Numbered from the stretch's first letter, positions 5,848 to 48,669 are shown. The stretch: DNA of 64,000 bases from Escherichia coli (GCF_024502345.1 NZ_JALDNN010000001.1), one strand, 5' to 3'. Numbers and translations are program-made. Notes: generated by a model not told the origin, from the sequence alone.

Positions 5848-8247
5848 ATGAAGCTAACCGATGCGGATAATGCCGCTGATGGCATTTTTTTCCCCGCCCT
5901 TGAGCAAAATATGATGGGTGCGGTGTTAATTAACGAAAATGATGAAGTGATGTTTTTCAACCCCGCCGCAGAGAAGCTCTGGGGATACAAACGTGAAGAA
6001 GTCATTGGCAATAACATTGATATGCTGATTCCGCGGGATTTGCGTCCTGCGCATCCTGAATACATTCGTCACAACCGTGAAGGCGGTAAAGCGCGCGTCG
6101 AGGGGATGAGTCGGGAGCTGCAGCTGGAGAAAAAAGACGGCAGTAAAATCTGGACCCGTTTTGCGCTATCGAAAGTGAGCGCCGAGGGGAAAGTTTATTA
6201 CCTGGCGCTGGTACGGGATGCCAGCGTAGAAATGGCGCAAAAAGAACAGACCCGACAATTGATTATTGCCGTTGACCATCTCGACCGACCGGTGATTGTC
6301 CTCGATCCGGAACGCCATATTGTGCAGTGCAATCGCGCATTTACCGAAATGTTTGGTTACTGCATTAGCGAAGCCAGCGGTATGCAGCCCGATACACTCC
6401 TGAACATTCCTAAATTCCCTGCCGATAACCGCATTCGTTTACAACAGTTGCTATGGAAAACCGCCCGCGATCAGGACGAATTTCTGCTGCTGACGCGCAC
6501 CGGTGAAAAAATCTGGATTAAAGCCTCTATCAGCCCGGTTTATGACGTGCTCGCGCATCTGCAGAACCTGGTAATGACTTTCTCGGATATCACCGAAGAA
6601 CGGCAGATCCGCCAGCTTGAAGGCAATATTCTCGCCGCCATGTGCAGCAGCCCGCCATTTCATGAAATGGGGGAAATCATTTGTCGTAACATCGAATCTG
6701 TTCTCAACGAATCGCATGTTTCGCTGTTCGCACTGCGCAACGGGATGCCGATACACTGGGCGTCATCTTCCCACGGTGCAGAAGTTCAAAATGCGCAAAG
6801 CTGGTCAGCGACCATTCGTCAGCGTGATGGCGCGCCTGCGGGGATCCTGCAAATTAAAACCTCGTCAGGAGCAGAAACCAGCGCCTTTATCGAACGCGTG
6901 GCAGATATCAGCCAGCATATGGCCGCGCTGGCGCTGGAACAGGAAAAAAGCCGTCAGCATATTGAACAACTCATCCAATTTGATCCGATGACCGGTCTGC
7001 CAAATCGCAATAACCTGCACAATTACCTCGATGACCTTGTCGACAAAGCCGTCTCTCCGGTGGTGTATCTCATCGGTGTTGACCATATTCAGGATGTGAT
7101 TGATAGCCTTGGCTATGCGTGGGCCGATCAGGCATTGCTGGAAGTGGTCAATCGCTTTCGTGAAAAACTCAAACCGGATCAGTATCTCTGTCGTATCGAA
7201 GGTACGCAGTTTGTCCTCGTGAGCCTGGAAAACGACGTCAGTAACATTACCCAAATCGCCGATGAGCTACGGAATGTGGTCAGCAAGCCGATAATGATTG
7301 ACGATAAACCCTTCCCGCTTACCTTGAGTATTGGCATCAGCTACGACGTGGGTAAAAACCGCGATTACCTGCTCTCTACTGCTCACAATGCAATGGATTA
7401 TATTCGCAAGAATGGCGGTAACGGCTGGCAGTTCTTCAGCCCGGCGATGAACGAAATGGTAAAAGAGCGTTTGGTTTTAGGCGCAGCGCTGAAAGAAGCG
7501 ATTAGCAATAACCAACTGAAACTGGTTTACCAGCCGCAAATCTTCGCAGAAACGGGTGAACTGTACGGCATCGAAGCCCTTGCTCGCTGGCACGATCCCC
7601 AGCATGGTCATGTGCCCCCTTCACGGTTTATTCCTCTCGCAGAAGAGATTGGTGAAATCGAAAATATTGGGCGCTGGGTCATCGCGGAAGCTTGCCGTCA
7701 GTTAGCAGAATGGCGTAGCCAGAATATTCATATCCCGGCGCTTTCCGTTAACTTGTCGGCACTGCACTTTCGCAGTAATCAACTGCCTAATCAGGTGTCT
7801 GATGCAATGCAAGCCTGGGGTATTGACGGCCACCAGCTGACGGTGGAAATCACGGAAAGCATGATGATGGAACACGATACCGAAATCTTTAAGCGCATTC
7901 AGATCCTGCGTGATATGGGCGTGGGTTTATCGGTAGATGATTTTGGCACGGGCTTTTCCGGATTATCCCGCTTAGTCAGTCTTCCGGTAACGGAAATCAA
8001 AATTGACAAAAGTTTTGTCGATCGTTGTCTGACGGAAAAACGCATCCTTGCCTTACTTGAAGCCATTACCAGCATTGGGCAAAGCCTCAATTTAACCGTC
8101 GTGGCGGAAGGCGTCGAAACCAAAGAGCAATTTGAGATGCTACGCAAGATCCACTGTCGCGTTATTCAGGGATATTTCTTTTCCCGCCCCCTACCCGCCG
8201 AAGAAATTCCAGGCTGGATGAGCAGCGTGTTACCGCTGAAAATCTGA
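5848..8247 (+). CDS. dosP: Oxygen-sensing c-di-GMP phosphodiesterase (haem-PAS, GGDEF-like, EAL)
   Basis: Start taken at the internal ATG giving MKLTDADNAADGIFFPALEQ (799 aa). The track ORF begins 8 codons earlier, directly after the dosC stop. Confidence 0.9.
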   Translation: MKLTDADNAADGIFFPALEQNMMGAVLINENDEVMFFNPAAEKLWGYKREEVIGNNIDMLIPRDLRPAHPEYIRHNREGGKARVEGMSRELQLEKKDGSKIWTRFALSKVSAEGKVYYLALVRDASVEMAQKEQTRQLIIAVDHLDRPVIVLDPERHIVQCNRAFTEMFGYCISEASGMQPDTLLNIPKFPADNRIRLQQLLWKTARDQDEFLLLTRTGEKIWIKASISPVYDVLAHLQNLVMTFSDITEERQIRQLEGNILAAMCSSPPFHEMGEIICRNIESVLNESHVSLFALRNGMPIHWASSSHGAEVQNAQSWSATIRQRDGAPAGILQIKTSSGAETSAFIERVADISQHMAALALEQEKSRQHIEQLIQFDPMTGLPNRNNLHNYLDDLVDKAVSPVVYLIGVDHIQDVIDSLGYAWADQALLEVVNRFREKLKPDQYLCRIEGTQFVLVSLENDVSNITQIADELRNVVSKPIMIDDKPFPLTLSIGISYDVGKNRDYLLSTAHNAMDYIRKNGGNGWQFFSPAMNEMVKERLVLGAALKEAISNNQLKLVYQPQIFAETGELYGIEALARWHDPQHGHVPPSRFIPLAEEIGEIENIGRWVIAEACRQLAEWRSQNIHIPALSVNLSALHFRSNQLPNQVSDAMQAWGIDGHQLTVEITESMMMEHDTEIFKRIQILRDMGVGLSVDDFGTGFSGLSRLVSLPVTEIKIDKSFVDRCLTEKRILALLEAITSIGQSLNLTVVAEGVETKEQFEMLRKIHCRVIQGYFFSRPLPAEEIPGWMSSVLPLKI

Positions 8248-8260
8248 CAAATTCCTCTCG

Positions 8261-8278
8261 CCCGCACTCGCGGGTTTT
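8261..8278 (+). terminator. Putative Rho-independent terminator after dosP
   Basis: cccgc/gcggg stem followed by TTTT shortly after the dosP stop. Confidence 0.5.
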
Positions 8279-8504
8279 CATTTAACGTGACACTGTCACT
8301 TAAATACTGTGATTTCAGCTACGATTCCGGGAGATTCCTTCCTTAACTTCCCCTCTTGCACCAAAACTGCACTACGCTGCACAAATGTTGATCAAAAGTT
8401 AAAAAATATAACTTTAAGCTAGCATTCTGGCGCTTATCCCGGCATGGCATGAGATCTGCATAAGCGGAAAGCGCAGCAAATTTTGTCTTATACAGGAACC
8501 GTTT

Positions 8505-9086
8505 ATGTCGGATACCACCGAACTGGTTGATTTAGCCGTGATCTTCCCTGATCTGGAGATCGAATTGAAATACGCCTGCGCTGATAACATCACAGGTAAA
8601 GCTATTTATCAGCAAGCGCGTTGTCTGTTACACAAGGATGCGATTACCGCGCTGGCGAAAAGTATCAGTATCGCCCAGCTCTCAGGCTTACAACTGGTGA
8701 TTTACGATGCGTACCGCCCACAACAAGCACAGGCGATGTTGTGGCAAGCCTGCCCAGACCCGCAATATGTTGTTGATGTGACGGTCGGTTCTAATCACAG
8801 CCGTGGCACGGCGATCGACCTGACGCTTCGTGATGAGCACGGGAACATCCTCGATATGGGCGCAGGGTTCGATGAAATGCACGAGCGCTCCCATGCTTAC
8901 CATCCTTCCGTCCCGCCCGCCGCTCAGCGCAATCGCCTGTTGCTGAATGCGATAATGACTGGTGGCGGTTTTGTCGGTATCTCCAGCGAATGGTGGCACT
9001 TCGAATTACCCCAGGCAGCGAGTTACCCTCTGCTCGCTGATCAATTCTCTTGTTTTATATCCCCTGGCACGCAGCACGTCAGTTAA
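8505..9086 (+). CDS. ddpX: D-Ala-D-Ala dipeptidase (VanX homolog)
   Basis: 193-aa ORF with a VanX-like metal-binding motif (SNHSRGTAIDL); first gene of the ddp cluster. Confidence 0.9.
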   Translation: MSDTTELVDLAVIFPDLEIELKYACADNITGKAIYQQARCLLHKDAITALAKSISIAQLSGLQLVIYDAYRPQQAQAMLWQACPDPQYVVDVTVGSNHSRGTAIDLTLRDEHGNILDMGAGFDEMHERSHAYHPSVPPAAQRNRLLLNAIMTGGGFVGISSEWWHFELPQAASYPLLADQFSCFISPGTQHVS

Positions 9087-9099
9087 TCAGGAAACTGTC

Positions 9100-10650
9100 A
9101 TGAAGAGATCGATATCGTTTCGTCCAACATTGCTCGCGCTCGTCCTTGCCACAACTTTCCCGGTTGCGCACGCCGCCGTACCGAAAGATATGCTGGTGAT
9201 TGGTAAGGCCGCCGATCCACAAAACCTCGACCCGGCGGTAACAATAGATAATAACGACTGGACAGTGACCTACCCGTCTTATCAGCGGCTGGTTCAGTAC
9301 AAAACGGACGGTGATAAAGGCTCAACCGACGTTGAAGGCGATCTGGCAAGTAGCTGGAAAGCGTCTGACGAACAAAAAGACTGGACGTTCACCCTGAAGG
9401 ACAATGCTAAATTTGCCGATGGCACACCTGTCACTGCCGAAGCAGTAAAACTCTCTTTTGAGCGGTTACTAAAAATCGGCCAGGGGCCAGCAGAAGCATT
9501 TCCCAAAGATTTAAAGATTGATGCTCCCGACGAACATACGGTGAAGTTTACCCTTAGCCAACCATTCGCACCGTTCCTCTACACGCTGGCGAATGACGGT
9601 GCATCCATTATCAATCCGGCGGTCTTAAAGGAACATGCAGCGGATGATGCTCGCGGCTTCCTCGCGCAAAATACCGCCGGTTCCGGACCATTTATGCTGA
9701 AAAGCTGGCAAAAAGGTCAGCAATTAGTTCTGGTGCCAAATCCGCATTACCCCGGCAATAAACCGAACTTTAAGCGAGTATCGGTAAAAATTATCGGTGA
9801 AAGTGCCTCCCGTCGCCTGCAGCTCTCCCGTGGCGACATTGACATTGCCGATGCGCTGCCGGTGGATCAACTCAACGCCCTGAAGCAGGAAAATAAAGTC
9901 AATGTGGCAGAGTATCCGTCACTGCGCGTCACCTATCTGTATCTGAATAACAGCAAAGCGCCACTTAATCAGGCGGATCTGCGTCGGGCCATTTCCTGGT
10001 CTACGGATTATCAGGGAATGGTTAACGGCATTCTGAGTGGTAACGGAAAACAGATGCGCGGCCCGATTCCGGAAGGCATGTGGGGCTACGATGCGACGGC
10101 AATGCAATACAACCATGACGAAACGAAAGCCAAAGCCGAATGGGATAAAGTGAAGAGCAAACCCACCAGCCTGACGTTTCTCTACTCCGATAACGATCCG
10201 AACTGGGAGCCTATTGCTCTGGCGACACAATCCAGTCTCAACAAGCTGGGCATCAATGTGAAGCTGGAAAAGCTGGCGAACGCCACCATGCGCGACAGAG
10301 TGGGTAAAGGTGATTACGACATTGCGATTGGCAACTGGAGTCCGGATTTTGCCGACCCGTATATGTTTATGAATTACTGGTTTGAGTCAGATAAAAAAGG
10401 TCTGCCGGGTAACCGCTCGTTCTATGAAAACAGTGAGGTCGATAAGTTACTGCGCAATGCGCTTGCGACCACCGACCAGACGCAGCGTACCCGAGACTAC
10501 CAGCAGGCACAGAAAATCGTCATTGATGACGCTGCTTATGTGTACCTGTTCCAGAAAAACTACCAACTGGCGATGAACAAAGAGGTGAAAGGCTTTGTAT
10601 TCAATCCCATGCTGGAACAGGTCTTCAATATCAATACCATGAGTAAATAA
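9100..10650 (+). CDS. ddpA: Periplasmic dipeptide-binding protein of an ABC transporter
   Basis: Start chosen at MKRSISFRPTLLALVLATTFPVAHA (signal peptide). The track ORF extends upstream and overlaps the ddpX 3' end. Confidence 0.88.
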   Translation: MKRSISFRPTLLALVLATTFPVAHAAVPKDMLVIGKAADPQNLDPAVTIDNNDWTVTYPSYQRLVQYKTDGDKGSTDVEGDLASSWKASDEQKDWTFTLKDNAKFADGTPVTAEAVKLSFERLLKIGQGPAEAFPKDLKIDAPDEHTVKFTLSQPFAPFLYTLANDGASIINPAVLKEHAADDARGFLAQNTAGSGPFMLKSWQKGQQLVLVPNPHYPGNKPNFKRVSVKIIGESASRRLQLSRGDIDIADALPVDQLNALKQENKVNVAEYPSLRVTYLYLNNSKAPLNQADLRRAISWSTDYQGMVNGILSGNGKQMRGPIPEGMWGYDATAMQYNHDETKAKAEWDKVKSKPTSLTFLYSDNDPNWEPIALATQSSLNKLGINVKLEKLANATMRDRVGKGDYDIAIGNWSPDFADPYMFMNYWFESDKKGLPGNRSFYENSEVDKLLRNALATTDQTQRTRDYQQAQKIVIDDAAYVYLFQKNYQLAMNKEVKGFVFNPMLEQVFNINTMSK

Positions 10651-10651
10651 C

Positions 10652-11674
10652 GTGACCTTCTGGAGTATTTTACGCCAACGCTGCTGGGGGCTGGTGCTCG
10701 TGATGGCGGGGGTCTGTGTGATTACGTTTATTATCTCGCATCTGATCCCCGGCGATCCGGCGCGGTTATTGGCAGGTGACCGCGCCAGCGATGCTATCGT
10801 GGAAAATATTCGCCAGCAACTGGGACTGGACCAGCCACTGTATGTACAGTTTTACCGCTACGTCAGCGACCTGTTTCATGGTGACCTGGGAACATCCATT
10901 CGTACTGGGCGTCCGGTGTTGGAAGAGTTGCGTATATTTTTCCCGGCAACGCTGGAGCTGGCTTTTTGTGCCCTGCTGCTGGCACTCTTGATTGGCATCC
11001 CGCTGGGCATACTCTCTGCAGTCTGGCGAAATCGCTGGCTGGATCATCTGGTGCGAATAATGGCCATTACCGGAATCTCCACACCTGCGTTCTGGCTTGG
11101 GCTGGGCGTCATTGTGCTGTTTTATGGTCATCTGCAAATTCTTCCCGGCGGCGGAAGGCTTGATGACTGGCTGGATCCACCAACGCACGTTACCGGCTTT
11201 TATCTGCTCGATGCGCTGCTTGAAGGTAACGGTGAAGTCTTCTTCAATGCGCTGCAACATCTCATCTTACCGGCATTAACGCTGGCGTTCGTTCACCTGG
11301 GAATTGTCGCTCGCCAGATCCGCTCAGCGATGCTGGAACAATTGAGTGAAGACTACATTCGTACCGCCCGGGCCAGCGGCTTGCCTGGCTGGTATATCGT
11401 TTTATGTTATGCGCTACCCAATGCGTTGATCCCATCGATTACCGTATTAGGTCTGGCGCTGGGCGATTTGTTGTATGGCGCAGTGCTCACCGAAACCGTT
11501 TTTGCCTGGCCCGGAATGGGGGCATGGGTAGTAACATCAATACAGGCGCTCGACTTCCCGGCAGTGATGGGCTTTGCCGTCGTGGTTTCATTTGCTTATG
11601 TGCTGGTCAACCTGGTGGTGGATTTGCTCTATTTGTGGATTGATCCGCGTATCGGACGTCGAGGTGGTGAATGA
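10652..11674 (+). CDS. ddpB: ABC transporter permease
   Basis: 340-aa membrane protein; 1-nt gap after ddpA. Confidence 0.88.
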   Translation: MTFWSILRQRCWGLVLVMAGVCVITFIISHLIPGDPARLLAGDRASDAIVENIRQQLGLDQPLYVQFYRYVSDLFHGDLGTSIRTGRPVLEELRIFFPATLELAFCALLLALLIGIPLGILSAVWRNRWLDHLVRIMAITGISTPAFWLGLGVIVLFYGHLQILPGGGRLDDWLDPPTHVTGFYLLDALLEGNGEVFFNALQHLILPALTLAFVHLGIVARQIRSAMLEQLSEDYIRTARASGLPGWYIVLCYALPNALIPSITVLGLALGDLLYGAVLTETVFAWPGMGAWVVTSIQALDFPAVMGFAVVVSFAYVLVNLVVDLLYLWIDPRIGRRGGE

Positions 11675-12567
11675 TGCTAAGCGAGGAAACGTCCGCCGTA
11701 CGCCCACAAAAACAAACGCGATTTAACGGTGCAAAACTGGTATGGATGCTGAAAGGCAGTCCGCTCACCGTGACCGGCGCAGTCATCATTGTATTAATGC
11801 TACTGATGATGATTTTTTCACCGTGGTTGGCGACGCATGATCCCAACGCCATTGATTTATCCGCCCGCCTTTTGCCGCCTTCTGCGGCGCACTGGTTTGG
11901 CACCGATGAAGTGGGACGCGATCTGTTTAGCCGCGTACTGGTCGGCAGTCAGCAATCAATTCTCGCCGGATTAGTCGTGGTTGCCATTGCGGGTATGATT
12001 GGTTCGCTACTCGGATGTCTATCCGGTGTGCTTGGCGGACGCGCAGACGCCATCATCATGCGCATCATGGACATTATGCTGTCGATTCCTTCGTTGGTAC
12101 TGACAATGGCACTGGCTGCCGCTCTCGGGCCGAGTTTGTTTAACGCCATGCTGGCTATTGCTATTGTGCGAATTCCCTTTTATGTGCGCCTGGCGCGGGG
12201 GCAAGCATTAGTTGTACGCCAGTATACCTATGTTCAGGCGGCGAAAACCTTTGGCGCGTCTCGTTGGCATCTGATCAACTGGCATATTTTACGTAACTCC
12301 CTACCGCCGCTGATCGTGCAGGCATCGCTGGATATCGGTAGCGCGATTTTAATGGCCGCCACGTTGGGATTTATTGGCCTGGGTGCTCAACAACCGAGTG
12401 CTGAATGGGGCGCGATGGTAGCAAATGGTCGCAACTATGTACTCGATCAGTGGTGGTATTGCGCATTTCCGGGGGCAGCGATTTTGCTTACCGCCGTCGG
12501 GTTTAATCTCTTTGGTGATGGTATTCGCGATCTGCTTGACCCGAAATCAGGAGGAAAGCAGTCATGA
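11671..12567 (+). CDS. ddpC: ABC transporter permease
   Basis: 298-aa membrane protein; 4-nt overlap with ddpB. Confidence 0.88.
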   Translation: MMLSEETSAVRPQKQTRFNGAKLVWMLKGSPLTVTGAVIIVLMLLMMIFSPWLATHDPNAIDLSARLLPPSAAHWFGTDEVGRDLFSRVLVGSQQSILAGLVVVAIAGMIGSLLGCLSGVLGGRADAIIMRIMDIMLSIPSLVLTMALAAALGPSLFNAMLAIAIVRIPFYVRLARGQALVVRQYTYVQAAKTFGASRWHLINWHILRNSLPPLIVQASLDIGSAILMAATLGFIGLGAQQPSAEWGAMVANGRNYVLDQWWYCAFPGAAILLTAVGFNLFGDGIRDLLDPKSGGKQS

Positions 12568-13550
12568 CCCAACCCGTTCTGGACATTCAACAGCTGCATT
12601 TGAGTTTCCCCGGTTTTAACGGTGATGTTCACGCGCTCAACAATGTGTCCTTGCAGATTAACCGCAGTGAAATTGTCGGTCTGGTGGGAGAATCCGGCTC
12701 AGGTAAATCAGTCACCGCAATGCTGATTATGCGTCTGCTACCGACGGGCAGTTATTGCGTACATCGGGGGCAGATTTCACTGCTGGGAGAAGATGTTCTT
12801 AACGCTCGGGAAAAACAGCTTCGTCAGTGGCGCGGCGCACGAGTGGCGATGATCTTTCAGGAACCGATGACCGCTCTTAATCCGACACGTCGAATAGGTC
12901 TTCAGATGATGGACGTAATCCGCCATCATCAACCAATAAGTCGTCGGGAAGCCAGAGCTAAAGCGATTGCCCTGCTGGAAGAGATGCAAATCCCGGATGC
13001 CGTGGAAGTTATGTCGCGCTATCCGTTTGAGCTTTCAGGTGGTATGCGCCAGCGGGTTATGATTGCGCTGGCATTTTCCTGCGAGCCGCAATTGATTATT
13101 GCCGACGAACCGACTACGGCGCTGGACGTCACGGTACAGTTGCAGGTACTGCGTTTGCTTAAACATAAAGCCCGCGCCAGTGGAACTGCGGTACTGTTCA
13201 TCAGCCATGATATGGCCGTGGTGTCGCAACTGTGCGATAGCGTTTACGTGATGTATGCCGGAAGCGTAATTGAAAGCGGCGTGACGGCAGACGTTATCCA
13301 TCATCCCCGGCATCCGTATACCATTGGTTTGCTGCAATGCGCACCAGAACATGGAGTACCACGCCAGCCATTACCCGCCATTCCAGGGACGGTACCATAC
13401 CTCACCCATTTGCCTGACGGCTGCGCTTTTCGCGATCGTTGCTATGCGGCAGGTGCACAGTGTGAAAACGTCCCGGCGCTGACAGCGTGTGGTGACAACA
13501 ACCAGCGCTGCGCCTGTTGGTATCCGCAGCAGGAGGTCATAAGTGTCTGA
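12564..13550 (+). CDS. ddpD: ABC transporter ATP-binding protein
   Basis: Walker A (GESGSGKS), signature (LSGGMRQR) and Walker B motifs; 4-nt overlap with ddpC. Confidence 0.9.
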   Translation: MTQPVLDIQQLHLSFPGFNGDVHALNNVSLQINRSEIVGLVGESGSGKSVTAMLIMRLLPTGSYCVHRGQISLLGEDVLNAREKQLRQWRGARVAMIFQEPMTALNPTRRIGLQMMDVIRHHQPISRREARAKAIALLEEMQIPDAVEVMSRYPFELSGGMRQRVMIALAFSCEPQLIIADEPTTALDVTVQLQVLRLLKHKARASGTAVLFISHDMAVVSQLCDSVYVMYAGSVIESGVTADVIHHPRHPYTIGLLQCAPEHGVPRQPLPAIPGTVPYLTHLPDGCAFRDRCYAAGAQCENVPALTACGDNNQRCACWYPQQEVISV

Positions 13551-14469
13551 CACGTTATTAACGTTACGCGACGTCCATATCAATTTCCCGGCCCGTAAAA
13601 ACTGGCTTGGTAAAACTACGGAACATGTTCATGCCATTAATGGTATTGATTTACAGATCCGCCGTGGTGAAACCTTAGGGATCGTCGGCGAGTCAGGCTG
13701 CGGCAAAAGCACCCTCGCACAGCTTTTAATGGGCATGCTGCAACCGAGCCACGGGCAGTACATCCGTTCAGGCTCACAACGCATTATGCAGATGGTGTTT
13801 CAGGACCCGCTCTCTTCGCTTAATCCGCGCTTACCGGTGTGGCGCATCATCACAGAACCGCTCTGGATAGCTAAGCGTAGTAGTGAACAACAGCGGCGAG
13901 CGTTGGCAGAGGAGCTGGCTGTGCAGGTGGGTATTCGTCCGGAGTATCTCGACCGCCTGCCTCATGCGTTCTCCGGCGGGCAGCGGCAACGCATCGCCAT
14001 TGCCAGAGCACTCTCTTCGCAGCCTGACGTGATTGTGCTTGATGAGCCAACCTCGGCGCTGGATATCTCCGTGCAGGCGCAGATCCTCAATTTACTGGTA
14101 ACGCTACAGGAAAATCACGGGCTGACTTATGTGCTGATTTCACACAATGTCTCGGTGATACGTCATATGAGCGATCGGGTGGCGGTGATGTATCTCGGGC
14201 AGATTGTAGAACTGGGCGACGCGCAACAGGTGCTAACGGCTCCGGCACATCCATACACCCGATTATTGCTGGATTCCCTCCCCGCCATTGATAAACCGCT
14301 GGAGGAAGAATGGGCATTACGTAAAACGGAACTGCCAGGAAACCGCACGTTGCCGCAAGGCTGTTTTTTCTACGAACGTTGCCCTCTGGCAACCCACGGA
14401 TGTGAAGTCCGGCAATCATTAACAATAAGGGAGAACGGACGTGAGATCCGGTGCTGGCGGGCGCTGTAG
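13543..14469 (+). CDS. ddpF: ABC transporter ATP-binding protein
   Basis: Walker A (GESGCGKS) and signature (FSGGQRQR) motifs; 8-nt overlap with ddpD. Confidence 0.9.
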   Translation: MSDTLLTLRDVHINFPARKNWLGKTTEHVHAINGIDLQIRRGETLGIVGESGCGKSTLAQLLMGMLQPSHGQYIRSGSQRIMQMVFQDPLSSLNPRLPVWRIITEPLWIAKRSSEQQRRALAEELAVQVGIRPEYLDRLPHAFSGGQRQRIAIARALSSQPDVIVLDEPTSALDISVQAQILNLLVTLQENHGLTYVLISHNVSVIRHMSDRVAVMYLGQIVELGDAQQVLTAPAHPYTRLLLDSLPAIDKPLEEEWALRKTELPGNRTLPQGCFFYERCPLATHGCEVRQSLTIRENGREIRCWRAL

Positions 14470-14482
14470 AGATGCTAACAAC

Positions 14483-14515
14483 GCATCAGGCATTCACGCG
14501 CCTGACGCGTCATCC
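14483..14515. repeat. REP-like palindromic element between convergent ddpF and osmC
   Basis: Contains cgcatcaggc...gcctgacgcg...catccggca motifs typical of E. coli REP units. Confidence 0.45.
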
Positions 14516-14524
14516 GGCAATGCT

Positions 14525-14956
14525 TTACGATTTCAACTGGTAATCAAGCGTAATTTCCGCTTTCAGTACCTGAGAAACCGGGCATCCTGCTTTTGCTTTC
14601 TGGATGATGCCGTCAAAGGTAGAGGCATCAATACCCGGCACCGCAACTTCACTCTTCAGTGCGATTTTCGTAATCGCAAAACCGGCATCCACTTTATCCA
14701 GCGACACATCGGCGGTGGTATCAATCGATGTTGGCGTAAATCCCGCTTCCCCCAGCATTAATGAAAGCGCCATTGAGAAACATGCGGCATGCGCTGCGCC
14801 AATCAGTTCTTCAGGGTTAGTTCCTTTTTCGCCTTCAAAACGCGTGTTAAATCCATACGGCTGTTGGTTCAGCACGCCACTCTCGGTGGATACTGTTCCC
14901 TTCCCGCGTTTGATATCGCCTTCCCAGTGTGCCTGACCTTTCTTATGGATTGTCAT
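14525..14956 (-). CDS. osmC: Osmotically inducible peroxiredoxin (OsmC/Ohr family)
   Basis: 143-aa ORF MTIHKKGQAHWEGDIKRGKG...; position next to bdm and sra. Confidence 0.92.
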   Translation of the reverse strand: MTIHKKGQAHWEGDIKRGKGTVSTESGVLNQQPYGFNTRFEGEKGTNPEELIGAAHAACFSMALSLMLGEAGFTPTSIDTTADVSLDKVDAGFAITKIALKSEVAVPGIDASTFDGIIQKAKAGCPVSQVLKAEITLDYQLKS

Positions 14957-15067
14957 TGTTGCTCTCCTGTGGGCTTAAAAAGGAAATTATAGACTACGTG
15001 AGAAACAGCACGAGGATAAGCAGGATATTCCGAATAAAAATCCGGCAGAAATATTACTTCTGTACTT

Positions 15068-15104
15068 AAATTAAATTCCCACAATAAATTAAATTCCCAC
15101 AATA
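15068..15104. repeat. Tandem direct repeat (two 18-19 bp units) in the osmC upstream region
   Basis: aaattaaattcccacaata occurs twice back to back, about 110-150 bp upstream of the osmC start. Confidence 0.6.
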
Positions 15105-15319
15105 GATTACCGGGAATATATAACCCAAAAGATATTGTATCAATATTAATCGGATCATACCAATCACAATCCCTATGAATATCATGGAGTTAAAATATAA
15201 AAATCATCAACCAGGACTAATCTTAACAACGAAGCGGCAAATATTTGCCATGCTGAATGTGCTTTATAAATCTGCGATCCGTAGCAGACACCATAAATAC
15301 ACAGACACGGAGAATCACT

Positions 15320-15535
15320 ATGTTTACTTATTATCAGGCAGAAAATTCAACAGCAGAACCCGCTCTGGTTAATGCCATTGAGCAAGGCCTTCGGGCACAG
15401 CACGGTGTTGTCACTGAAGATGACATTCTCATGGAGCTGACCAAATGGGTGGAAGCTTCTGATAACGACATCCTCAGTGATATCTACCAGCAAACGATCA
15501 ATTATGTGGTCAGTGGCCAGCACCCTACGCTTTAA
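15320..15535 (+). CDS. bdm: Biofilm-dependent modulation protein
   Basis: 71-aa ORF MFTYYQAENSTAEPALVNAIEQGL... taken from the internal ATG of the track ORF. Confidence 0.88.
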   Translation: MFTYYQAENSTAEPALVNAIEQGLRAQHGVVTEDDILMELTKWVEASDNDILSDIYQQTINYVVSGQHPTL

Positions 15536-15636
15536 GGTGCTATGCTTGATCGGCAACCTAATTTAGGGGTTTAGCACGTGTTTCTTCGCTACGGCGATGT
15601 TGTCCTTAAAACTAGCTACAGGATTGAGGAGTTAAA

Positions 15637-15774
15637 ATGAAATCGAACCGTCAGGCACGTCATATTCTTGGACTGGACCATAAAATTTCTAACCAGCGCA
15701 AAATAGTTACCGAAGGTGACAAATCCAGCGTAGTAAATAACCCAACCGGCAGAAAACGCCCCGCTGAAAAGTAA
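15637..15774 (+). CDS. sra: Stationary-phase ribosome-associated protein (protein D)
   Basis: 45-aa [48 protein letters not shown] with an SD (ggag) upstream; too short for the track. Confidence 0.85.
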
Positions 15775-15804
15775 TTCATAACCATCAGTCCTCAATGACG
15801 ATTA

Positions 15805-15839
15805 AACACCATTGCCTGCGCAATGGTGTTTTTGTTTTT
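15805..15839 (+). terminator. Rho-independent terminator after sra
   Basis: Stem aacaccattg/caatggtgtt followed by a long T-run. Confidence 0.75.
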
Positions 15840-15930
15840 ATCTGCTTTATACTTGGGGCCGACGCCCTGGCGGTAAAGCAAAGACGATAAAAGCCCCCCA
15901 GGGATGGATATTCAAAAAAGAGTGAGTGAC

Positions 15931-17628
15931 ATGGAACCAAAAACAAAAAAACAGCGTTCGCTTTATATCCCTTACGCTGGCCCTGTACTGCTGGAATTTC
16001 CGTTGTTGAATAAAGGCAGTGCCTTCAGCATGGAAGAACGCCGTAACTTCAACCTGCTGGGGTTACTGCCGGAAGTGGTCGAAACCATCGAAGAACAAGC
16101 GGAACGAGCATGGATCCAGTATCAGGGATTCAAAACCGAAATCGACAAACACATCTACCTGCGTAACATCCAGGACACTAACGAAACCCTCTTCTACCGT
16201 CTGGTAAACAATCATCTTGATGAGATGATGCCTGTTATTTATACCCCAACCGTCGGCGCAGCCTGTGAGCGTTTTTCTGAGATCTACCGCCGTTCACGCG
16301 GCGTGTTTATCTCTTACCAGAACCGGCACAATATGGACGATATTCTGCAAAACGTGCCGAACCATAATATTAAAGTGATTGTGGTGACTGACGGTGAACG
16401 TATTCTGGGGCTTGGTGACCAGGGCATCGGTGGGATGGGCATTCCAATCGGTAAACTGTCGCTCTATACCGCCTGTGGCGGCATCAGCCCGGCGTATACC
16501 CTTCCGGTGGTGCTGGATGTCGGGACCAACAACCAGCAGCTGCTTAACGATCCGCTGTATATGGGCTGGCGTAATCCACGTATCACTGACGATGAATACT
16601 ATGAATTCGTTGATGAATTTATCCAGGCTGTGAAACAACGCTGGCCGGACGTGCTGTTGCAGTTTGAAGACTTTGCTCAAAAAAATGCGATGCCGTTACT
16701 TAACCGCTATCGCAATGAAATTTGTTCTTTTAACGATGACATTCAGGGCACTGCGGCGGTAACAGTCGGCACACTGATCGCAGCCAGCCGCGCGGCAGGT
16801 GGTCAGTTAAGCGAGAAAAAAATCGTCTTCCTTGGCGCAGGTTCAGCGGGATGCGGCATTGCCGAAATGATCATCGCCCAGACCCAGCGCGAAGGATTAA
16901 GCGAGGAAGCAGCGCGGCAGAAAGTCTTTATGGTCGATCGCTTTGGCTTGCTGACTGACAAGATGCCGAACCTGCTGCCTTTCCAGACCAAACTGGTGCA
17001 GAAACGCGAAAACCTCAGTGACTGGGATACCGACAGCGATGTGCTGTCACTGCTGGATGTGGTGCGCAATGTAAAACCAGATATTCTGATTGGCGTCTCA
17101 GGACAGACCGGGCTGTTTACGGAAGAGATCATCCGTGAGATGCATAAACACTGTCCGCGTCCGATCGTGATGCCGCTGTCTAACCCGACGTCACGCGTGG
17201 AAGCCACACCGCAGGACATTATCGCCTGGACCGAAGGTAACGCGCTGGTCGCCACTGGCAGCCCGTTTAATCCAGTGGTATGGAAAGATAAAATCTACCC
17301 TATCGCCCAGTGTAACAACGCCTTTATTTTCCCTGGCATCGGGCTGGGTGTTATTGCTTCCGGCGCGTCACGTATCACCGATGAGATGCTGATGTCAGCA
17401 AGTGAAACGCTTGCTCAGTATTCGCCGCTGGTGCTGAACGGCGAAGGTCTGGTACTACCGGAACTGAAAGATATTCAGAAAGTCTCCCGCGCAATTGCGT
17501 TTGCGGTTGGCAAAATGGCGCAGCAGCAAGGCGTGGCGGTGAAAACGTCTGCTGAAGCTTTGCAACAAGCCATTGACGATAATTTCTGGCAAGCCGAATA
17601 CCGCGACTACCGCCGTACCTCCATCTAA
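15931..17628 (+). CDS. maeA: NAD-dependent malic enzyme
   Basis: Start at [23 protein letters not shown] (565 aa); malic-enzyme and Rossmann motifs ([14 protein letters not shown]). Confidence 0.93.
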
Positions 17629-19202: not shown

Positions 19203-19253
19203 AAAAATGGCACCTTATAAAGCGCCATTTGAAACTGATGACAAATGCAACAT

Positions 19254-19370
19254 TGCCCGATGCGCTACGCTTATCAGGCCTACACGTTCACTGCAATCTA
19301 TTGGATTTGAACGGTTTGTAGGCCGGATAAGGCGTTCACGCCGCATCCGGCATGAACAAAGCCTACGTTG
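19254..19370. repeat. BIME/REP cluster between yddM and fdnI
   Basis: Two inverted REP units (tgcccgatgcgctacgcttatcaggcctaca and gtaggccggataaggcgttcacgccgcatccggca). Confidence 0.75.
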
Positions 19371-19430
19371 TCTACAATATGAAAATGACGCCTTTTACAG
19401 CGCCATTTTCAGCTTAAAGTTCAAAAGAGA

Positions 19431-35485: not shown

Positions 35486-35563
35486 TTTTCACCCTGGCCG
35501 GATAGCCCTTCGCTCTCCGGCCACTTGCAGGCTATGATAGTTCTCCAGCCCAGGAGAACGTTA

Positions 35564-36064
35564 ATGAAACCGCAGGTTTACCACGTCGATGCTTTTACCT
35601 CTCAACCATTTCGCGGCAATTCTGCCGGTGTTGTTTTCCCCGCCGATAATCTTAGCGAAGCGCAAATGCAGCTTATCGCCCGCGAATTAGGTCATTCGGA
35701 AACCACTTTTCTGCTGCACAGCGACGACAGCGATGTGCGCATCCGCTACTTTACGCCAACCGTTGAAGTTCCGATTTGTGGTCACGCGACAGTAGCTGCA
35801 CACTATGTACGTGCGAAGGTGTTAGGTTTAGGAAATTGCACGGTCTGGCAAACATCGCTGGCAGGAAAACATCGCGTGACTATCGAAAAGCACCACGATG
35901 GTTATCGTATTTCGCTGGAACAAGGTACGCCGGGCTTTGAGCCACCGCTGGAAGGTGAAACACGTGCGGCGATTATCAACGCGCTTCATCTCACTGAGGA
36001 CGATATTCTGCCAGGCTTGCCAATTCAGGTGGCAACAACAGGACACTCAAAAGGGCTTTGTTGA
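35564..36064 (+). pseudogene. yddE: PhzF-family isomerase-like gene, 3'-truncated by the IS903 insertion
   Basis: Start MKPQVYHVDAFTSQPFRGNSAGVVF. The reading frame runs into the IS left inverted repeat and ends at a stop inside the IS after about 166 codons; full-length YddE is about 297 aa. Confidence 0.8.
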
Positions 36065-37110
36065 ATAAATCGAACTTTTGCTGAGTTGAAGGATCAGATC
36101 ACGTATCTTCCCGACAACGCAGACCGTTCCGTGGCAAAGCAAAAGTTCAAAATCACCAACTGGCCCACCTACAATAAAGCCCTCATCAACCGTGGCTCCA
36201 TAACTTTCTGGCTGGATGATGAAGCTATTCAGGCCTGGTATGAGTCAGCAACACCTTCTTCACGAGGCAGACCTCAGCGCTATTCTGACCTTGCCATCAC
36301 GACTGTGCTGGTCATTAAACGCGTATTCAGGCTGACCCTGCGCGCTGCGCAGGGCTTTATTGATTCCATTTTTTCTCTGATGAACGTTCCGCTACGCTGC
36401 CCGGATTACAGCTGTGTCAGCAGGCGGGCAAAGTCGGTTAATGTCAGTTTCAAAACGCCCACCCGGGGTGAAATCGCACACCTGGTAATTGATTCCACCG
36501 GGCTGAAGGTCTTCGGTGAAGGCGAGTGGAAAGTCAAAAAGCATGGCCAGGAACGCCGCCGTATCTGGCGTAAGCTGCATCTCGCCGTTGACAGTAAAAC
36601 ACATGAAATCATCTGCGCTGACCTGTCGCTGAACAACGTTACGGACTCAGAGGCCTTCCCCGGGTTAATCCGGCAAACCCACCGGAAAATCAGGTCAGCC
36701 GCCGCCGATGGCGCTTACGATACCCGGCTATGTCACGATGAACTGCGGCGTAAGAAAATCAGCGCGCTTATCCCTCCCCGAAAAGGTGCGGGTTACTGGC
36801 CCGGTGAATATGCAGACCGTAACCGTGCAGTGGCTAATCAGCGAATGACCGGGAGTAATGCGCGGTGGAAATGGACAACAGATTACAACCGTCGCTCGAT
36901 AGCGGAAACGGCGATGTACCGGGTAAAACAGCTGTTCGGGGGTTCACTGACACTGCGTGACTACGATGGTCAGGTTGCAGAGGCTATGGCCCTGGTACGA
37001 GCGCTGAACAAAATGACGAAAGCAGGTATGCCTGAAAGCGTGCGTATTGCCTGAAAACACAACCCGCTACGGGGGAGACTTACCCGAAATCTGATTTATT
37101 CAACAAAGCC
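36056..37110 (+). mobile_element. IS903-group insertion sequence (IS5 family)
   Basis: Terminal inverted repeats GGCTTTGTTGAATAAATC at 36056..36073 and its reverse complement at 37093..37110; about 1.05 kb with a single transposase ORF. No matching 9-bp direct repeat flanks the element (actcaaaag on the left, tatgcaagg on the right). Confidence 0.9.
36086..37054 (+). CDS. IS903-family transposase
   Basis: ORF containing ...FKITNWPTYNKALINRGSITFWLDDEAIQAWY...WKVKKHGQERRRIWRKLHLAVDS...DGAYDTRLCHDELRRKKISALIPPRKGAGYWP..., matching my recollection of the IS903/IS102 transposase. The true start codon may be internal to the track ORF. Confidence 0.85.
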   Translation: MKDQITYLPDNADRSVAKQKFKITNWPTYNKALINRGSITFWLDDEAIQAWYESATPSSRGRPQRYSDLAITTVLVIKRVFRLTLRAAQGFIDSIFSLMNVPLRCPDYSCVSRRAKSVNVSFKTPTRGEIAHLVIDSTGLKVFGEGEWKVKKHGQERRRIWRKLHLAVDSKTHEIICADLSLNNVTDSEAFPGLIRQTHRKIRSAAADGAYDTRLCHDELRRKKISALIPPRKGAGYWPGEYADRNRAVANQRMTGSNARWKWTTDYNRRSIAETAMYRVKQLFGGSLTLRDYDGQVAEAMALVRALNKMTKAGMPESVRIA

Positions 37111-37483
37111 TATGCAAGGAGTATTTGATCATGTATAAGCAATAAAAACAGCTTCAGGAAATAAGGAATATCGCAATTTTTAAACATAAAATGCGAATCG
37201 TTCAATACAAAAAAGCAGCGTTGCGTAATCTTTCCCTGATTAAATACGCTACTGCCCTACCCTGATGACATGATCTGCACTGCACTATCATATAGACATG
37301 TTTCTCAACATGCGAAAAGATGTTTTATTTTCGGATTATATTAAATTGATATTTCATATAAAAAATGAAATTACATCAATCATATAAATAATTGTACCAA
37401 CTTTAATTACTATTCATAGCAAACAAATGGATATCCAGTTAACTACGCCAGTGATTCATTAACATTAACCTCCGGCATTATTG

Positions 37484-38101
37484 TTAAATAATGACATTCC
37501 TTTTTAATACTTCTTGTAATTTCGGTAACTGACATACAGCATCAGCAATCGCACTGATATTCGTGGCATTATCCTGAAACCATTCATGCCCAGGCCCCCA
37601 TGTACGCATAGTGCAAAGATAACAGTCCACCAGCGTTAGTTGCTCACCAAACGCATAAGGTTCAGCAGTGAGCTGCGAATTCAGCCAGATATAAAGCGAT
37701 TTTCGATATTCAATAACATTCTTCTTTAACTGTTCAGGTGCGTCAGGAGCCCAACGCTCAGGGTAATCGGCGAAAGTGAATGTTGGATAGATATTAGCAA
37801 CCAGCCAGACCAATAGCCGTTGAAACTGCTGGCGTTCGGTGCGCCCAACCGGTGGCGCAAGGTCCGGGCGACGATCGAGAACCATCAATGCAATCGCCGC
37901 TGTCTCCGTCATAATCTCGTCATTTTCCAATGCCAGTGTCGGAACCTGACACAACGGGTTCAGGGTTTTCAATAACTCGCGTGAAGCTCCCTCGTGGTCA
38001 AAACCACTGACATCAACGAACTGATAAGGAATATCAGCCAGTGTTAGCATCAGCTCACTGATTGTAGAGCCCCATCCGGGTACGCCATACACCTTAATCA
38101 T
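37484..38101 (-). CDS. yncG: Glutathione S-transferase homolog
   Basis: 205-aa ORF MIKVYGVPGWGSTISELMLTLADIPYQFVDV... with a GST thioredoxin-like N-terminal domain; next to ansP. Confidence 0.8.
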   Translation of the reverse strand: MIKVYGVPGWGSTISELMLTLADIPYQFVDVSGFDHEGASRELLKTLNPLCQVPTLALENDEIMTETAAIALMVLDRRPDLAPPVGRTERQQFQRLLVWLVANIYPTFTFADYPERWAPDAPEQLKKNVIEYRKSLYIWLNSQLTAEPYAFGEQLTLVDCYLCTMRTWGPGHEWFQDNATNISAIADAVCQLPKLQEVLKRNVII

Positions 38102-47308: not shown

Positions 47309-47650
47309 AGATCTTCTCATACTCTCCAGGTTTACAACATTATCCTTAATATTTACTTCTTTTTGCTGGCATCTACATTGAAATGAGTAGAAAACATCCC
47401 CCTACTGTCGTCTATACAAACAGCTTACTGATTCAAAGGGAATCTTGTTTTCACATTTTTCTATCATGAATACTTTATACGCGCGGGAGTCTATAAATGC
47501 TTTATACTTTCAAGGAATAACGCAAATATAAAAAGATGGCGTAAAGTATATGCATGGCAGGATGTTTGCAACCTCCTTCATGACGCTGCCCCATTGAAAT
47601 TGCAAACCCCGCCCTGGTTATCTTGCCCATTTATCATGCAAAACAGATAA

Positions 47651-48460
47651 TTATAGGCCTCTGAATACCTCAGAAAGATTGAATTTTTTATAGTCCCTCT
47701 CTTGAATATTTCCATTTGAAATCAATCGATTCATCTCTTCAACAAAATAATTTATATCATCACACTTGTTATTATCCGGAAGATCTGAGTAGTTATAATT
47801 CCACCATTTTATTCTCAACAGTTCATCAATAACATTTGAATCAAACCTAAATCTGATTATTTTTGCAGGAACTCCTGCAACTATGGCATATGGGGGCACA
47901 TCTTTGGTAACAACGGAATTGGCAGCAATAACAGCACCATCACCTATTGTGATGCCACCTTTCAATACAACATCATTTCCTATCCAGACATCATTTCCTA
48001 TAATCGGATTTTCAGGTTTTGTAATGAATGGTTTCAATGTCCAGCTACGTTCAAACTCACTCATAGCAAACTTATCAAATTCACCGTTATAAGTCATCAT
48101 GTGAGTAGTAAAACGATTCAAAGAATGATTTCCACCCATTATTTTTACATTTGATGCAATACTACAAAATCGACCTATACGTATATTCCCTGAAAAATGA
48201 CAGGTCGGAAATGAAAAAGCGCCGACACTGGAGAAATTTTTTACAGGCATTGTTGAATATTCTTCAGCAATAACATTATCTTCAATTGTTATCTTGTCAC
48301 CTTTTGAGAAAAGAAATAAATTCCTTTCTTTATACGACTTCTTCCCCTTATGATTTAAAAAGATTTTATTATCCATACAAAACTCAAAGTGTTTTTTCGT
48401 CCATCTGAAGGTAAGGGGTTTATTTTTATCTTCCGTGAATTTGTACAATTGAACTTTCAT
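47651..48460 (-). CDS. Hexapeptide-repeat acetyltransferase, XAT family (CatB/Vat-like)
   Basis: 269-aa ORF; the C-terminal half (…GRFCSIASNVKIMGGNHSLNRF…IGNDVWIGNDVVLKGGITIGDGAVIAANSVVTKDVPPYAIVAGVPAKIIRFRFDSNVIDELLRIKWWNY…) closely resembles the conserved core of CatB chloramphenicol and Vat streptogramin-A acetyltransferases. Markedly AT-rich. Confidence 0.75.
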   Translation of the reverse strand: MKVQLYKFTEDKNKPLTFRWTKKHFEFCMDNKIFLNHKGKKSYKERNLFLFSKGDKITIEDNVIAEEYSTMPVKNFSSVGAFSFPTCHFSGNIRIGRFCSIASNVKIMGGNHSLNRFTTHMMTYNGEFDKFAMSEFERSWTLKPFITKPENPIIGNDVWIGNDVVLKGGITIGDGAVIAANSVVTKDVPPYAIVAGVPAKIIRFRFDSNVIDELLRIKWWNYNYSDLPDNNKCDDINYFVEEMNRLISNGNIQERDYKKFNLSEVFRGL

Positions 48461-48633
48461 TGTTAATACTTCTACTTATAAAGTATTAGTTTAATAACGA
48501 TACTCTAAAGCCTTATGCTAATCAACTGTGACAGGATGAAAAATCGCCATCAAACATTTAGCCTAATTTTTACGCTAGTTATTAATGTAATCATTCTAAT
48601 ACTTAACCGCCATTAAACTCAGAACCGAAAACG

Positions 48634-48660
48634 ATAGTGGCCGTCCTATAACAGCCACTA
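48634..48660 (-). terminator. Putative terminator after patD
   Basis: agtggc/gccact hairpin just downstream of the patD stop on the minus strand. Confidence 0.45.
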
Positions 48661-48669
48661 ACATCTAAC

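Follow-up and report, generated by a model that had tools for sequence, protein, structure and literature searches.

The Escherichia coli ddpXABCDF operon: a VanX-type D-Ala-D-Ala dipeptidase linked to a peptide importer, not to glycopeptide resistance

Introduction

Does a chromosomal homologue of the vancomycin-resistance dipeptidase VanX point to resistance in Escherichia coli, or does it belong to a system that scavenges D-Ala-D-Ala as a nutrient? The question is raised by ddpX, the leading gene of the six-gene operon ddpXABCDF, which occupies positions 8505–14469 of a 64,000-nt stretch of E. coli DNA (NZ_JALDNN010000001.1; hereafter the window, with coordinates counted from its first letter). 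An earlier reading of the sequence (the original prediction) had described a VanX-type dipeptidase translationally coupled to a dipeptide ATP-binding cassette (ABC) importer, associated with scavenging rather than with resistance. Based on the analysis presented here, ddpXABCDF is very probably a nitrogen-starvation and stationary-phase scavenging unit, driven by NtrC and sigma-54, in which peptide is imported by DdpA and DdpBCDF and D-Ala-D-Ala is hydrolyzed in the cytoplasm by DdpX. The evidence from the window consists of gene content and intactness, protein domains, catalytic residues, a promoter motif, localization signals and the lack of vanH and vanA, to which comparative data add the linkage of the genes across the Enterobacterales; activation by NtrC and sigma-54 has been established elsewhere for an identical promoter (PMC8743547, PMC4591121).

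Results

An intact operon shared with K-12

Listing and translation of the open reading frames (ORFs) place six intact frames without internal stops on the + strand at 8505–14469, and together with the annotation of K-12 DH5alpha they bear out the six same-strand genes, and the coordinates, of the original prediction. The first gene, ddpX (8505–9086, ATG start, 193 aa), encodes a cytoplasmic Zn-dependent D-Ala-D-Ala dipeptidase of peptidase family M15 and the VanX type. It is followed by ddpA (9100–10650, ATG start, 516 aa), encoding a periplasmic family-5 substrate-binding protein with an N-terminal signal peptide, by genes for two ABC permeases, ddpB (10652–11674, GTG start, 340 aa; DppB/OppB type, PF00528 and PF19300) and ddpC (11671–12567, ATG start, 298 aa; DppC/OppC type, PF00528 and PF12911), and by genes for two ABC ATPases, ddpD (12564–13550, ATG start, 328 aa) and ddpF (13543–14469, GTG start, 308 aa), each with PF00005 and PF08352.

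The genes had been described as separated by 1-nt gaps or overlapping by 4–8 nt, which is true of four of the five junctions (A/B, +1 nt; B/C, -4; C/D, -4; D/F, -8), with the ddpC start overlapping the ddpB stop (ATGA) and the ddpF start overlapping ddpD by 8 nt. It is not true of ddpX/ddpA, the junction between dipeptidase and importer on which the title of the original prediction turned; there, a 13-nt spacer holds its own AGGAA Shine-Dalgarno sequence and forms the loosest junction in the operon. Judged from the gene spacing, translation may be coupled across the ddp junctions, and the coupling would be weakest at ddpX/ddpA. The claim is further qualified by the unequal induction of the first and last genes in published reverse transcription quantitative PCR (RT-qPCR) data, 104.5-fold for ddpX and 2.2-fold for ddpF (PMC8743547).

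A megablast search against 5426 complete E. coli genomes matched the region in 5410, with the full operon in 4270, and the homology is therefore real, with chance ruled out. The DNA is 98.7% identical to K-12 DH5alpha and colinear with it, ddp lying between dosP and osmC, and in a side-by-side alignment the RefSeq gene coordinates of DH5alpha fall on the ORFs of the window base for base. DdpX is identical to its K-12 counterpart at 193/193 residues, and DdpA, B, C, D and F differ at two to six residues each (16 substitutions in total). The locus is the ordinary, already described ddpXABCDF operon of E. coli, formerly named vanX/yddSRQPO in K-12, and there is nothing novel in the locus itself. 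The genome closest to the window, FDAARGOS_943 (NZ_CP065615.1; 99.0% identity), has an internal stop in ddpB, a gene that is intact in the window. In the annotation of FDAARGOS_943, ddpB, digH and maeA are pseudogenes and an IS1 insertion adjoins sra.

A cytoplasmic dipeptidase with a complete VanX active site

DdpX matches the Pfam family Peptidase_M15 (PF01427; 265.9 bits, cutoff 27) and passes the NCBIfam equivalog for D-Ala-D-Ala dipeptidase (NF007557; 334.7 bits, cutoff 176). The only solved relative found by sequence is VanX itself (PDB 1R44; E = 1e-20, 41% identity over 153 aligned positions). In the alignment to 1R44, the zinc ligands H116, D123 and H184 of VanX correspond to H98, D105 and H165 of DdpX, the catalytic base E181 to E162, and R71 to R71, with Y21, D68, S114 and D142 of VanX all conserved as Y23, D68, S96 and D123. 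The leading gene is thus a VanX homologue as predicted, with every compared VanX residue of catalytic or ligand-binding role kept. Inspection of the DdpX sequence revealed no hydrophobic segment and no signal peptide. Hydrolysis of D-Ala-D-Ala has reportedly been shown, by Lessard et al. in 1998, for the K-12 protein identical to DdpX.

A full set of VanX residues is not accompanied by the rest of a resistance system. DdpX fails the curated NCBIfam equivalog for VanX (NF033115; 93.9 bits, cutoff 320), and no vanH-, vanA- or ddl-type gene and no VanRS pair was found in the 64 kb window, using the RefSeq annotation of the colinear K-12 stretches and, for the window-specific or unfetched parts, a Pfam scan of the main ORFs. 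The search for adjacent vanA or vanH genes was accordingly negative throughout the window, and the view that the enzyme serves scavenging and not resistance held. These results have a practical value for annotation: with a complete VanX active site, DdpX can be misreported as a vancomycin-resistance gene by naive similarity searches, and the cutoff of the curated model, like the neighbouring genes, shows that it is not one. In a separate context, multicopy genomic fragments carrying ddpX, and other fragments carrying the neighbouring dosP, gave resistance to phage N4 (Dub-seq; PMC7553319).

An importer of the Opp/Dpp type

DdpABCDF has the composition of an Opp/Dpp-type importer, a single family-5 binding protein being joined by a pair of BPD_transp_1 permeases and a pair of ATPases that combine ABC_tran and oligo_HPY domains. 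The binding protein, DdpA (PF00496 SBP_bac_5, 335.4 bits), is alone among the six proteins in bearing a signal sequence. The predicted signal peptide, MKRSISFRPTLLALVLATTFPVAHA/AV, was read from the sequence and shows basic residues, a hydrophobic core at residues 9–27 (the single hydrophobic stretch of the protein) and an AHA/A cleavage motif. DdpA aligns with DppA over its whole length (E = 2e-45), and the solved structures closest to it are those of peptide, opine and 'heme' binding proteins. In DppA, Asp408 anchors the alpha-amino group of the peptide and Arg355 anchors the carboxylate; in a sequence alignment with 8Z1Y chain F, the amino anchor is kept as D416 of DdpA.

DdpB and DdpC have several hydrophobic segments each, and DdpC passes the model 'D,D-dipeptide ABC transporter permease' (NF007376; 624 bits, cutoff 434), the only importer subunit to pass a D,D-dipeptide model and one for which the model is named after the ddp operon. 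Both ATPases carry the expected nucleotide-binding motifs, Walker A GESGSGKS (residues 42–49), signature LSGGM and Walker B LIIADEP in DdpD, and GESGCGKS, FSGGQ and VIVLDEP in DdpF. The C-terminal oligo_HPY region of DdpD holds C287-X5-C293-X6-C300, and DdpF holds C274-X5-C280-X6-C287 and then C304. This C-X5-C-X6-C arrangement with a further cysteine is encoded at 13422–13517 (DdpD C287–C318) and 14362–14454 (DdpF C274–C304) and, as a motif, appears to resemble the site at which related Opp/Dpp ATPases are reported to carry an Fe-S cluster.

A sigma-54 promoter and a candidate NtrC enhancer

Just past the dosP stop, the terminator scan found a terminator-like hairpin on the + strand at 8260–8275 (GCCCGC-ACTC-GCGGGT, then TTTTCATTT; fold -10.9 kcal/mol, z = -2.2). 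The hairpin marks the upstream boundary of the operon, which makes ddp a separate transcription unit with its own promoter. At 8444–8460 (+ strand), a pattern search located the sigma-54 -24/-12 promoter ATGGCATGAGATCTGCA, with its GG at 8446–8447 and its GC at 8458–8459, and this sequence is letter for letter that of OS16, a sigma-54 site upstream of K-12 ddpX identified by chromatin immunoprecipitation sequencing (ChIP-seq; PMC4591121). By itself, the sigma-54 pattern occurs in the window no more often than chance would give (30 matches, 43 expected), so the weight given to the motif comes only from its identity with the published site. Further upstream, three direct TGCAC half-sites on the + strand at 8357, 8368 and 8378 (spacing of 11 and 10 bp) constitute a candidate NtrC enhancer at 8357–8382. 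Their distance of ~90–115 nt from the inferred start site, on its upstream side, is one expected of an NtrC enhancer, and they may be bound by NtrC.

Published work on K-12 agrees with control by both proteins, with an NtrC ChIP-seq peak at ddpXABCDF (PMC4066584), gel shifts in which NtrC and the RpoN holoenzyme bind the ddp promoter region (PMC8743547), and an induction on nitrogen depletion that depends on RpoN and NtrC, measured by RT-qPCR at the levels given above for ddpX and ddpF (PMC8743547). In the O157:H7 strain EDL933, ddpXA are among the RpoS-dependent genes (PMC2907692). A sigma-70 scan detected no promoter-like site upstream of ddpX, its only two hits both falling in the osmC/bdm intergenic region, and no RNA family was detected by an Rfam scan of 7500–16000 at E ≤ 1.

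These elements suggest how the operon would work. Transcription would start at the sigma-54 promoter and need NtrC bound upstream, with the published RpoS dependence as a further input, and a promoter that requires NtrC would leave the operon silent unless nitrogen is limiting. DdpA would be exported to the periplasm, bind a small peptide and pass it to the channel formed by DdpB and DdpC, with import powered by the ATPases DdpD and DdpF. In the cytoplasm, the zinc enzyme DdpX would then split D-Ala-D-Ala into two D-alanines, which could be deaminated for nitrogen and carbon. A promoter with essentially no basal activity would be a sensible control for DdpX, because the enzyme can drain the cell-wall precursor pool.

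Presence and absence within E. coli

The operon is missing from approximately one fifth of complete E. coli genomes, as 1140 of the 5410 matching genomes fall below 80% coverage and those sampled match only the osmC end. The boundaries of the missing block can be read in the urinary tract infection (UTI) strain 2/0 (locus L005), where osmC comes directly after dosP; the last homologous position of the window is 8323 and the next is 14481, and 69 unrelated bp (L005 11932–12000) replace 6157 bp of the window. This presence/absence block (8324–14480, + strand) comprises the promoter region and ddpXABCDF. With the whole block missing in some genomes and an internal stop in ddpB of the closest genome, the ddp operon is dispensable in E. 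coli. A literature search for the absence of ddp in particular E. coli phylogroups returned nothing relevant.

Conservation and a SapR-like regulator in other Enterobacterales

A single DdpX scan of species-representative genomes, with tblastn of the six proteins of the window, provided a comparative set of 80 Enterobacterales loci (61–94% identity). ddpX is directly followed by ddpA on the same strand in 67 of them, 62 with all of ddpABCDF and five that end at the locus edge. As read from these gene orders, the conserved ddpX–ddpA linkage independently supports a functional link between dipeptidase and transporter. The other 13 loci have a ddpX homologue without the transporter. These stand-alone homologues belong to Erwinia, Pantoea and Mixta, and most are flanked by thyA and the ppd/recC genes (L043, L047, L049, L054, L071, L078 and L083, around 8001–8570; also L059, L070, L079 and L082), and there were no van-like genes among the flanks that were sampled. 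In Erwinia sp. JUb26, a stand-alone ddpX (L083) coexists with an operon copy (L081), and Mixta tenebrionis (L042) retains short remnants of the regulator gene described below and of ddpA.

In 64 of the 67 operon loci, a gene for an RpiR-family regulator (284–298 aa) stands 11–125 nt upstream of ddpX on the same strand, for example at 7117–7986 of L008, with equivalents throughout the 64 loci (L008–L085). The protein has an RpiR-family helix-turn-helix (HTH) domain, and the nearest model is SapR (NF046014), with scores of 376–429 bits that lie below the cutoff of 500. This SapR-like gene is absent from the window and from two other Escherichia loci (the loci without it being the window, L006, L007 and L051). 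It has no tblastn match anywhere in the window, and permissive tblastn and blastn searches of 8240–8520 detected no regulator remnant better than chance. No operon locus other than the window and the two further Escherichia loci has the sigma-54 motif at this position; a single non-Escherichia operon locus has a motif-like match, 171 nt upstream, at the scan threshold used. The E. coli version is thereby atypical of the wider family, with no SapR-like regulator, a sigma-54 promoter and an operon that is missing from about one fifth of strains.

In Burkholderia pseudomallei, SapR activates an adjacent, co-regulated dipeptidase/ABC cluster (PMC9884982). A tentative interpretation, and one that we consider less likely than not, is that the Escherichia operon descends from a widespread seven-gene module and was rewired and made dispensable, the regulator having been lost without trace and control by NtrC and sigma-54 gained. 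Should the ancestral regulator sense a sugar phosphate derived from the cell wall, the original job of the module would have been peptidoglycan recycling and not nitrogen scavenging. These comparative observations are small additions that were not found in the searchable literature, and they do not make the locus novel.

Flanking sequence and other differences from K-12

The genes around ddp are those of K-12: gadBC, digH, dosC and dosP precede it, and osmC, bdm, sra and maeA come after it. The end of dosP is at 8247; osmC (14525–14956, - strand) is convergent with ddpF. Between the two convergent genes, a repetitive extragenic palindromic (REP)-like inverted repeat at 14481–14510 folds stably on either strand (-20.5 kcal/mol, z = -2.6 on the + strand; -27.8 kcal/mol, z = -3.8 on the - strand). 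It was considered as an intrinsic terminator for ddp and rejected, as the hairpin has no U-tract on the + strand and received no + strand terminator call.

Elsewhere in the window, three segments set the sequence apart from K-12. At 36053–37486, ~12 kb of K-12 (part of yddE, nhoA, yddH, pptA, ydcC, an RHS element, vgrG and yncH) are missing and ~1.4 kb with a DDE transposase ORF (36086–37054) stand in their place, truncating the PhzF-family gene yddE (35525–36064). A 1.3-kb segment not in K-12 adjoins patD at 47355–48669 and includes, on the - strand at 47651–48460, a 269-aa ORF with hexapeptide-repeat acyltransferase motifs. The third is ~145 bp between yddM and fdnI (19230–19375) that do not align to K-12; in the same area, strain 2/0 has a frameshifted RelE/ParE-family toxin gene adjoining yddM.

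Discussion

Several observations weigh against the scavenging reading and deserve to be set out together. The literature still refers to DdpABCDF as a 'putative' permease (PMC3173086), and it yielded no data bearing directly on transport or binding by DdpA. The original prediction had called the system established for E. coli, which stands for the enzyme and its regulation and does not stand for transport; we infer that D-Ala-D-Ala is the substrate imported by DdpABCDF, an import that is usually ascribed to it on the strength of gene linkage, not measurement. DdpA falls short of every NCBIfam equivalog, coming nearest in part to NikA (181.8 bits, cutoff 393) and to DppA (170.5 bits, cutoff 1005), and the carboxylate anchor Arg355 of DppA aligns with a serine in DdpA, which is only a hint given the level of identity and a sequence-only alignment. 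Neither the pairing of ddpX with the transporter nor the ddp function is indispensable, since 13 of the 80 species keep a ddpX homologue without the transporter and about one fifth of E. coli genomes lack the operon. Finally, the unequal induction of ddpX and ddpF argues against simple stoichiometric co-expression and implies that polarity within the operon is strong or that attenuation or internal promoters operate there; the terminator scan showed no convincing internal terminator.

The alternative that fares best is one in which the importer carries something else, be it general L-dipeptides as a nitrogen source, other peptides containing D-amino acids, a metal chelate or a ligand resembling an opine, and DdpX acts on D-Ala-D-Ala that comes by another route or is made intracellularly. 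It draws on the putative status of transport, on a DdpA that fits no named equivalog and scores similarly against NikA and DppA, on the varied ligands of the closest solved relatives of DdpA (agropinic acid, 'heme'/AI-2, dipeptides) and on the non-basic residue at the position of Arg355. We nonetheless regard it as unlikely, given that a D-Ala-D-Ala-specific hydrolase is tightly linked to the ddp transporter in 67/80 species loci and in Burkholderia, that the aspartate anchoring the alpha-amino group of a peptide is conserved in DdpA, and that ATPases and permeases alike belong to the Dpp/Opp type.

It is less probable still that DdpX mainly controls the cell's own pool of D-Ala-D-Ala and peptidoglycan precursors in growth arrest, through envelope remodelling, autolysis or phage resistance, with nutrient gain secondary. 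A review has called the activity of DdpX potentially lethal (PMC6403190), and such a role could also be read into the phage N4 resistance conferred by multicopy ddpX fragments (PMC7553319), the induction of ddpX far above that of ddpF and the existence of stand-alone ddpX homologues. Membership in the NtrC regulon beside other scavenging transporters and the conserved linkage to the transporter fit scavenging better, however, and a multicopy phage phenotype is no evidence of a native role.

The notion that the operon is a decaying, functionless remnant in the strain of the window would be consistent with the internal stop in ddpB of FDAARGOS_943 and with the dispensability of the operon in about one fifth of E. 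coli genomes, but it is very improbable for a locus with an intact promoter motif and six full-length ORFs that lack internal stops and have 0–6 substitutions relative to K-12. The last alternative is a glycopeptide-resistance determinant, with a true VanX that clears D-Ala-D-Ala and lets D-Ala-D-Lac precursors prevail. Membership of DdpX in the Peptidase_M15 fold family and its complete set of VanX catalytic residues speak for it, but its probability is negligible, since it is refuted by the absence of the D-Ala-D-Lac ligase and dehydrogenase, with the score of DdpX far below the VanX cutoff, no vanH, vanA, ddl, vanR or vanS either in the colinear K-12 annotation and the main window-specific ORFs scanned or in the 13 sampled transporter-less loci, and a locus that is chromosomal in a Gram-negative host.

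Comparison with known systems

The closest known system is the ddpXABCDF operon of E. coli K-12 (b1488–b1483), which matches the window in its six genes, in their order and in its chromosomal site, with DdpX and the sigma-54 motif identical; the differences from the window are allelic only. With VanX of the enterococcal vanHAX cluster (1R44), DdpX shares the Peptidase M15 fold family, the His-Asp-His zinc site, the catalytic glutamate and Arg71. It differs in having neither the vanH and vanA partners nor VanRS, and in being linked instead to an ABC importer and an NtrC/sigma-54 promoter.

A functional parallel within the enteric Gram-negatives is PcgL of Salmonella, a VanX homologue for D-Ala-D-Ala utilization and not for resistance, which was reportedly identified as a periplasmic D-Ala-D-Ala dipeptidase by Hilbert et al. 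in 1999 (a study cited in PMC9884982). PcgL is exported and needs no dedicated importer, whereas DdpX is without a signal peptide and is paired with one. That importer is of the same transporter class as the E. coli DppABCDF (PDB 1DPP, 8Z1Y), with the same subunit composition and the same alpha-amino anchor aspartate, and is set apart by the low score of DdpA against the DppA model, the serine in place of Arg355, its regulation and its gene partners.

A further comparison is with the sapR-ddpX-ABC cluster of B. pseudomallei (BP1026B_II1045-1040) and the seven-gene sapR-ddpXABCDF module of Citrobacter, Enterobacter, Serratia, Pantoea and other genera. All share with the window a dipeptidase, then a binding protein, two permeases and two ATPases; these clusters differ in the RpiR/MurR-family regulator encoded directly upstream, where Escherichia has the sigma-54 motif instead.

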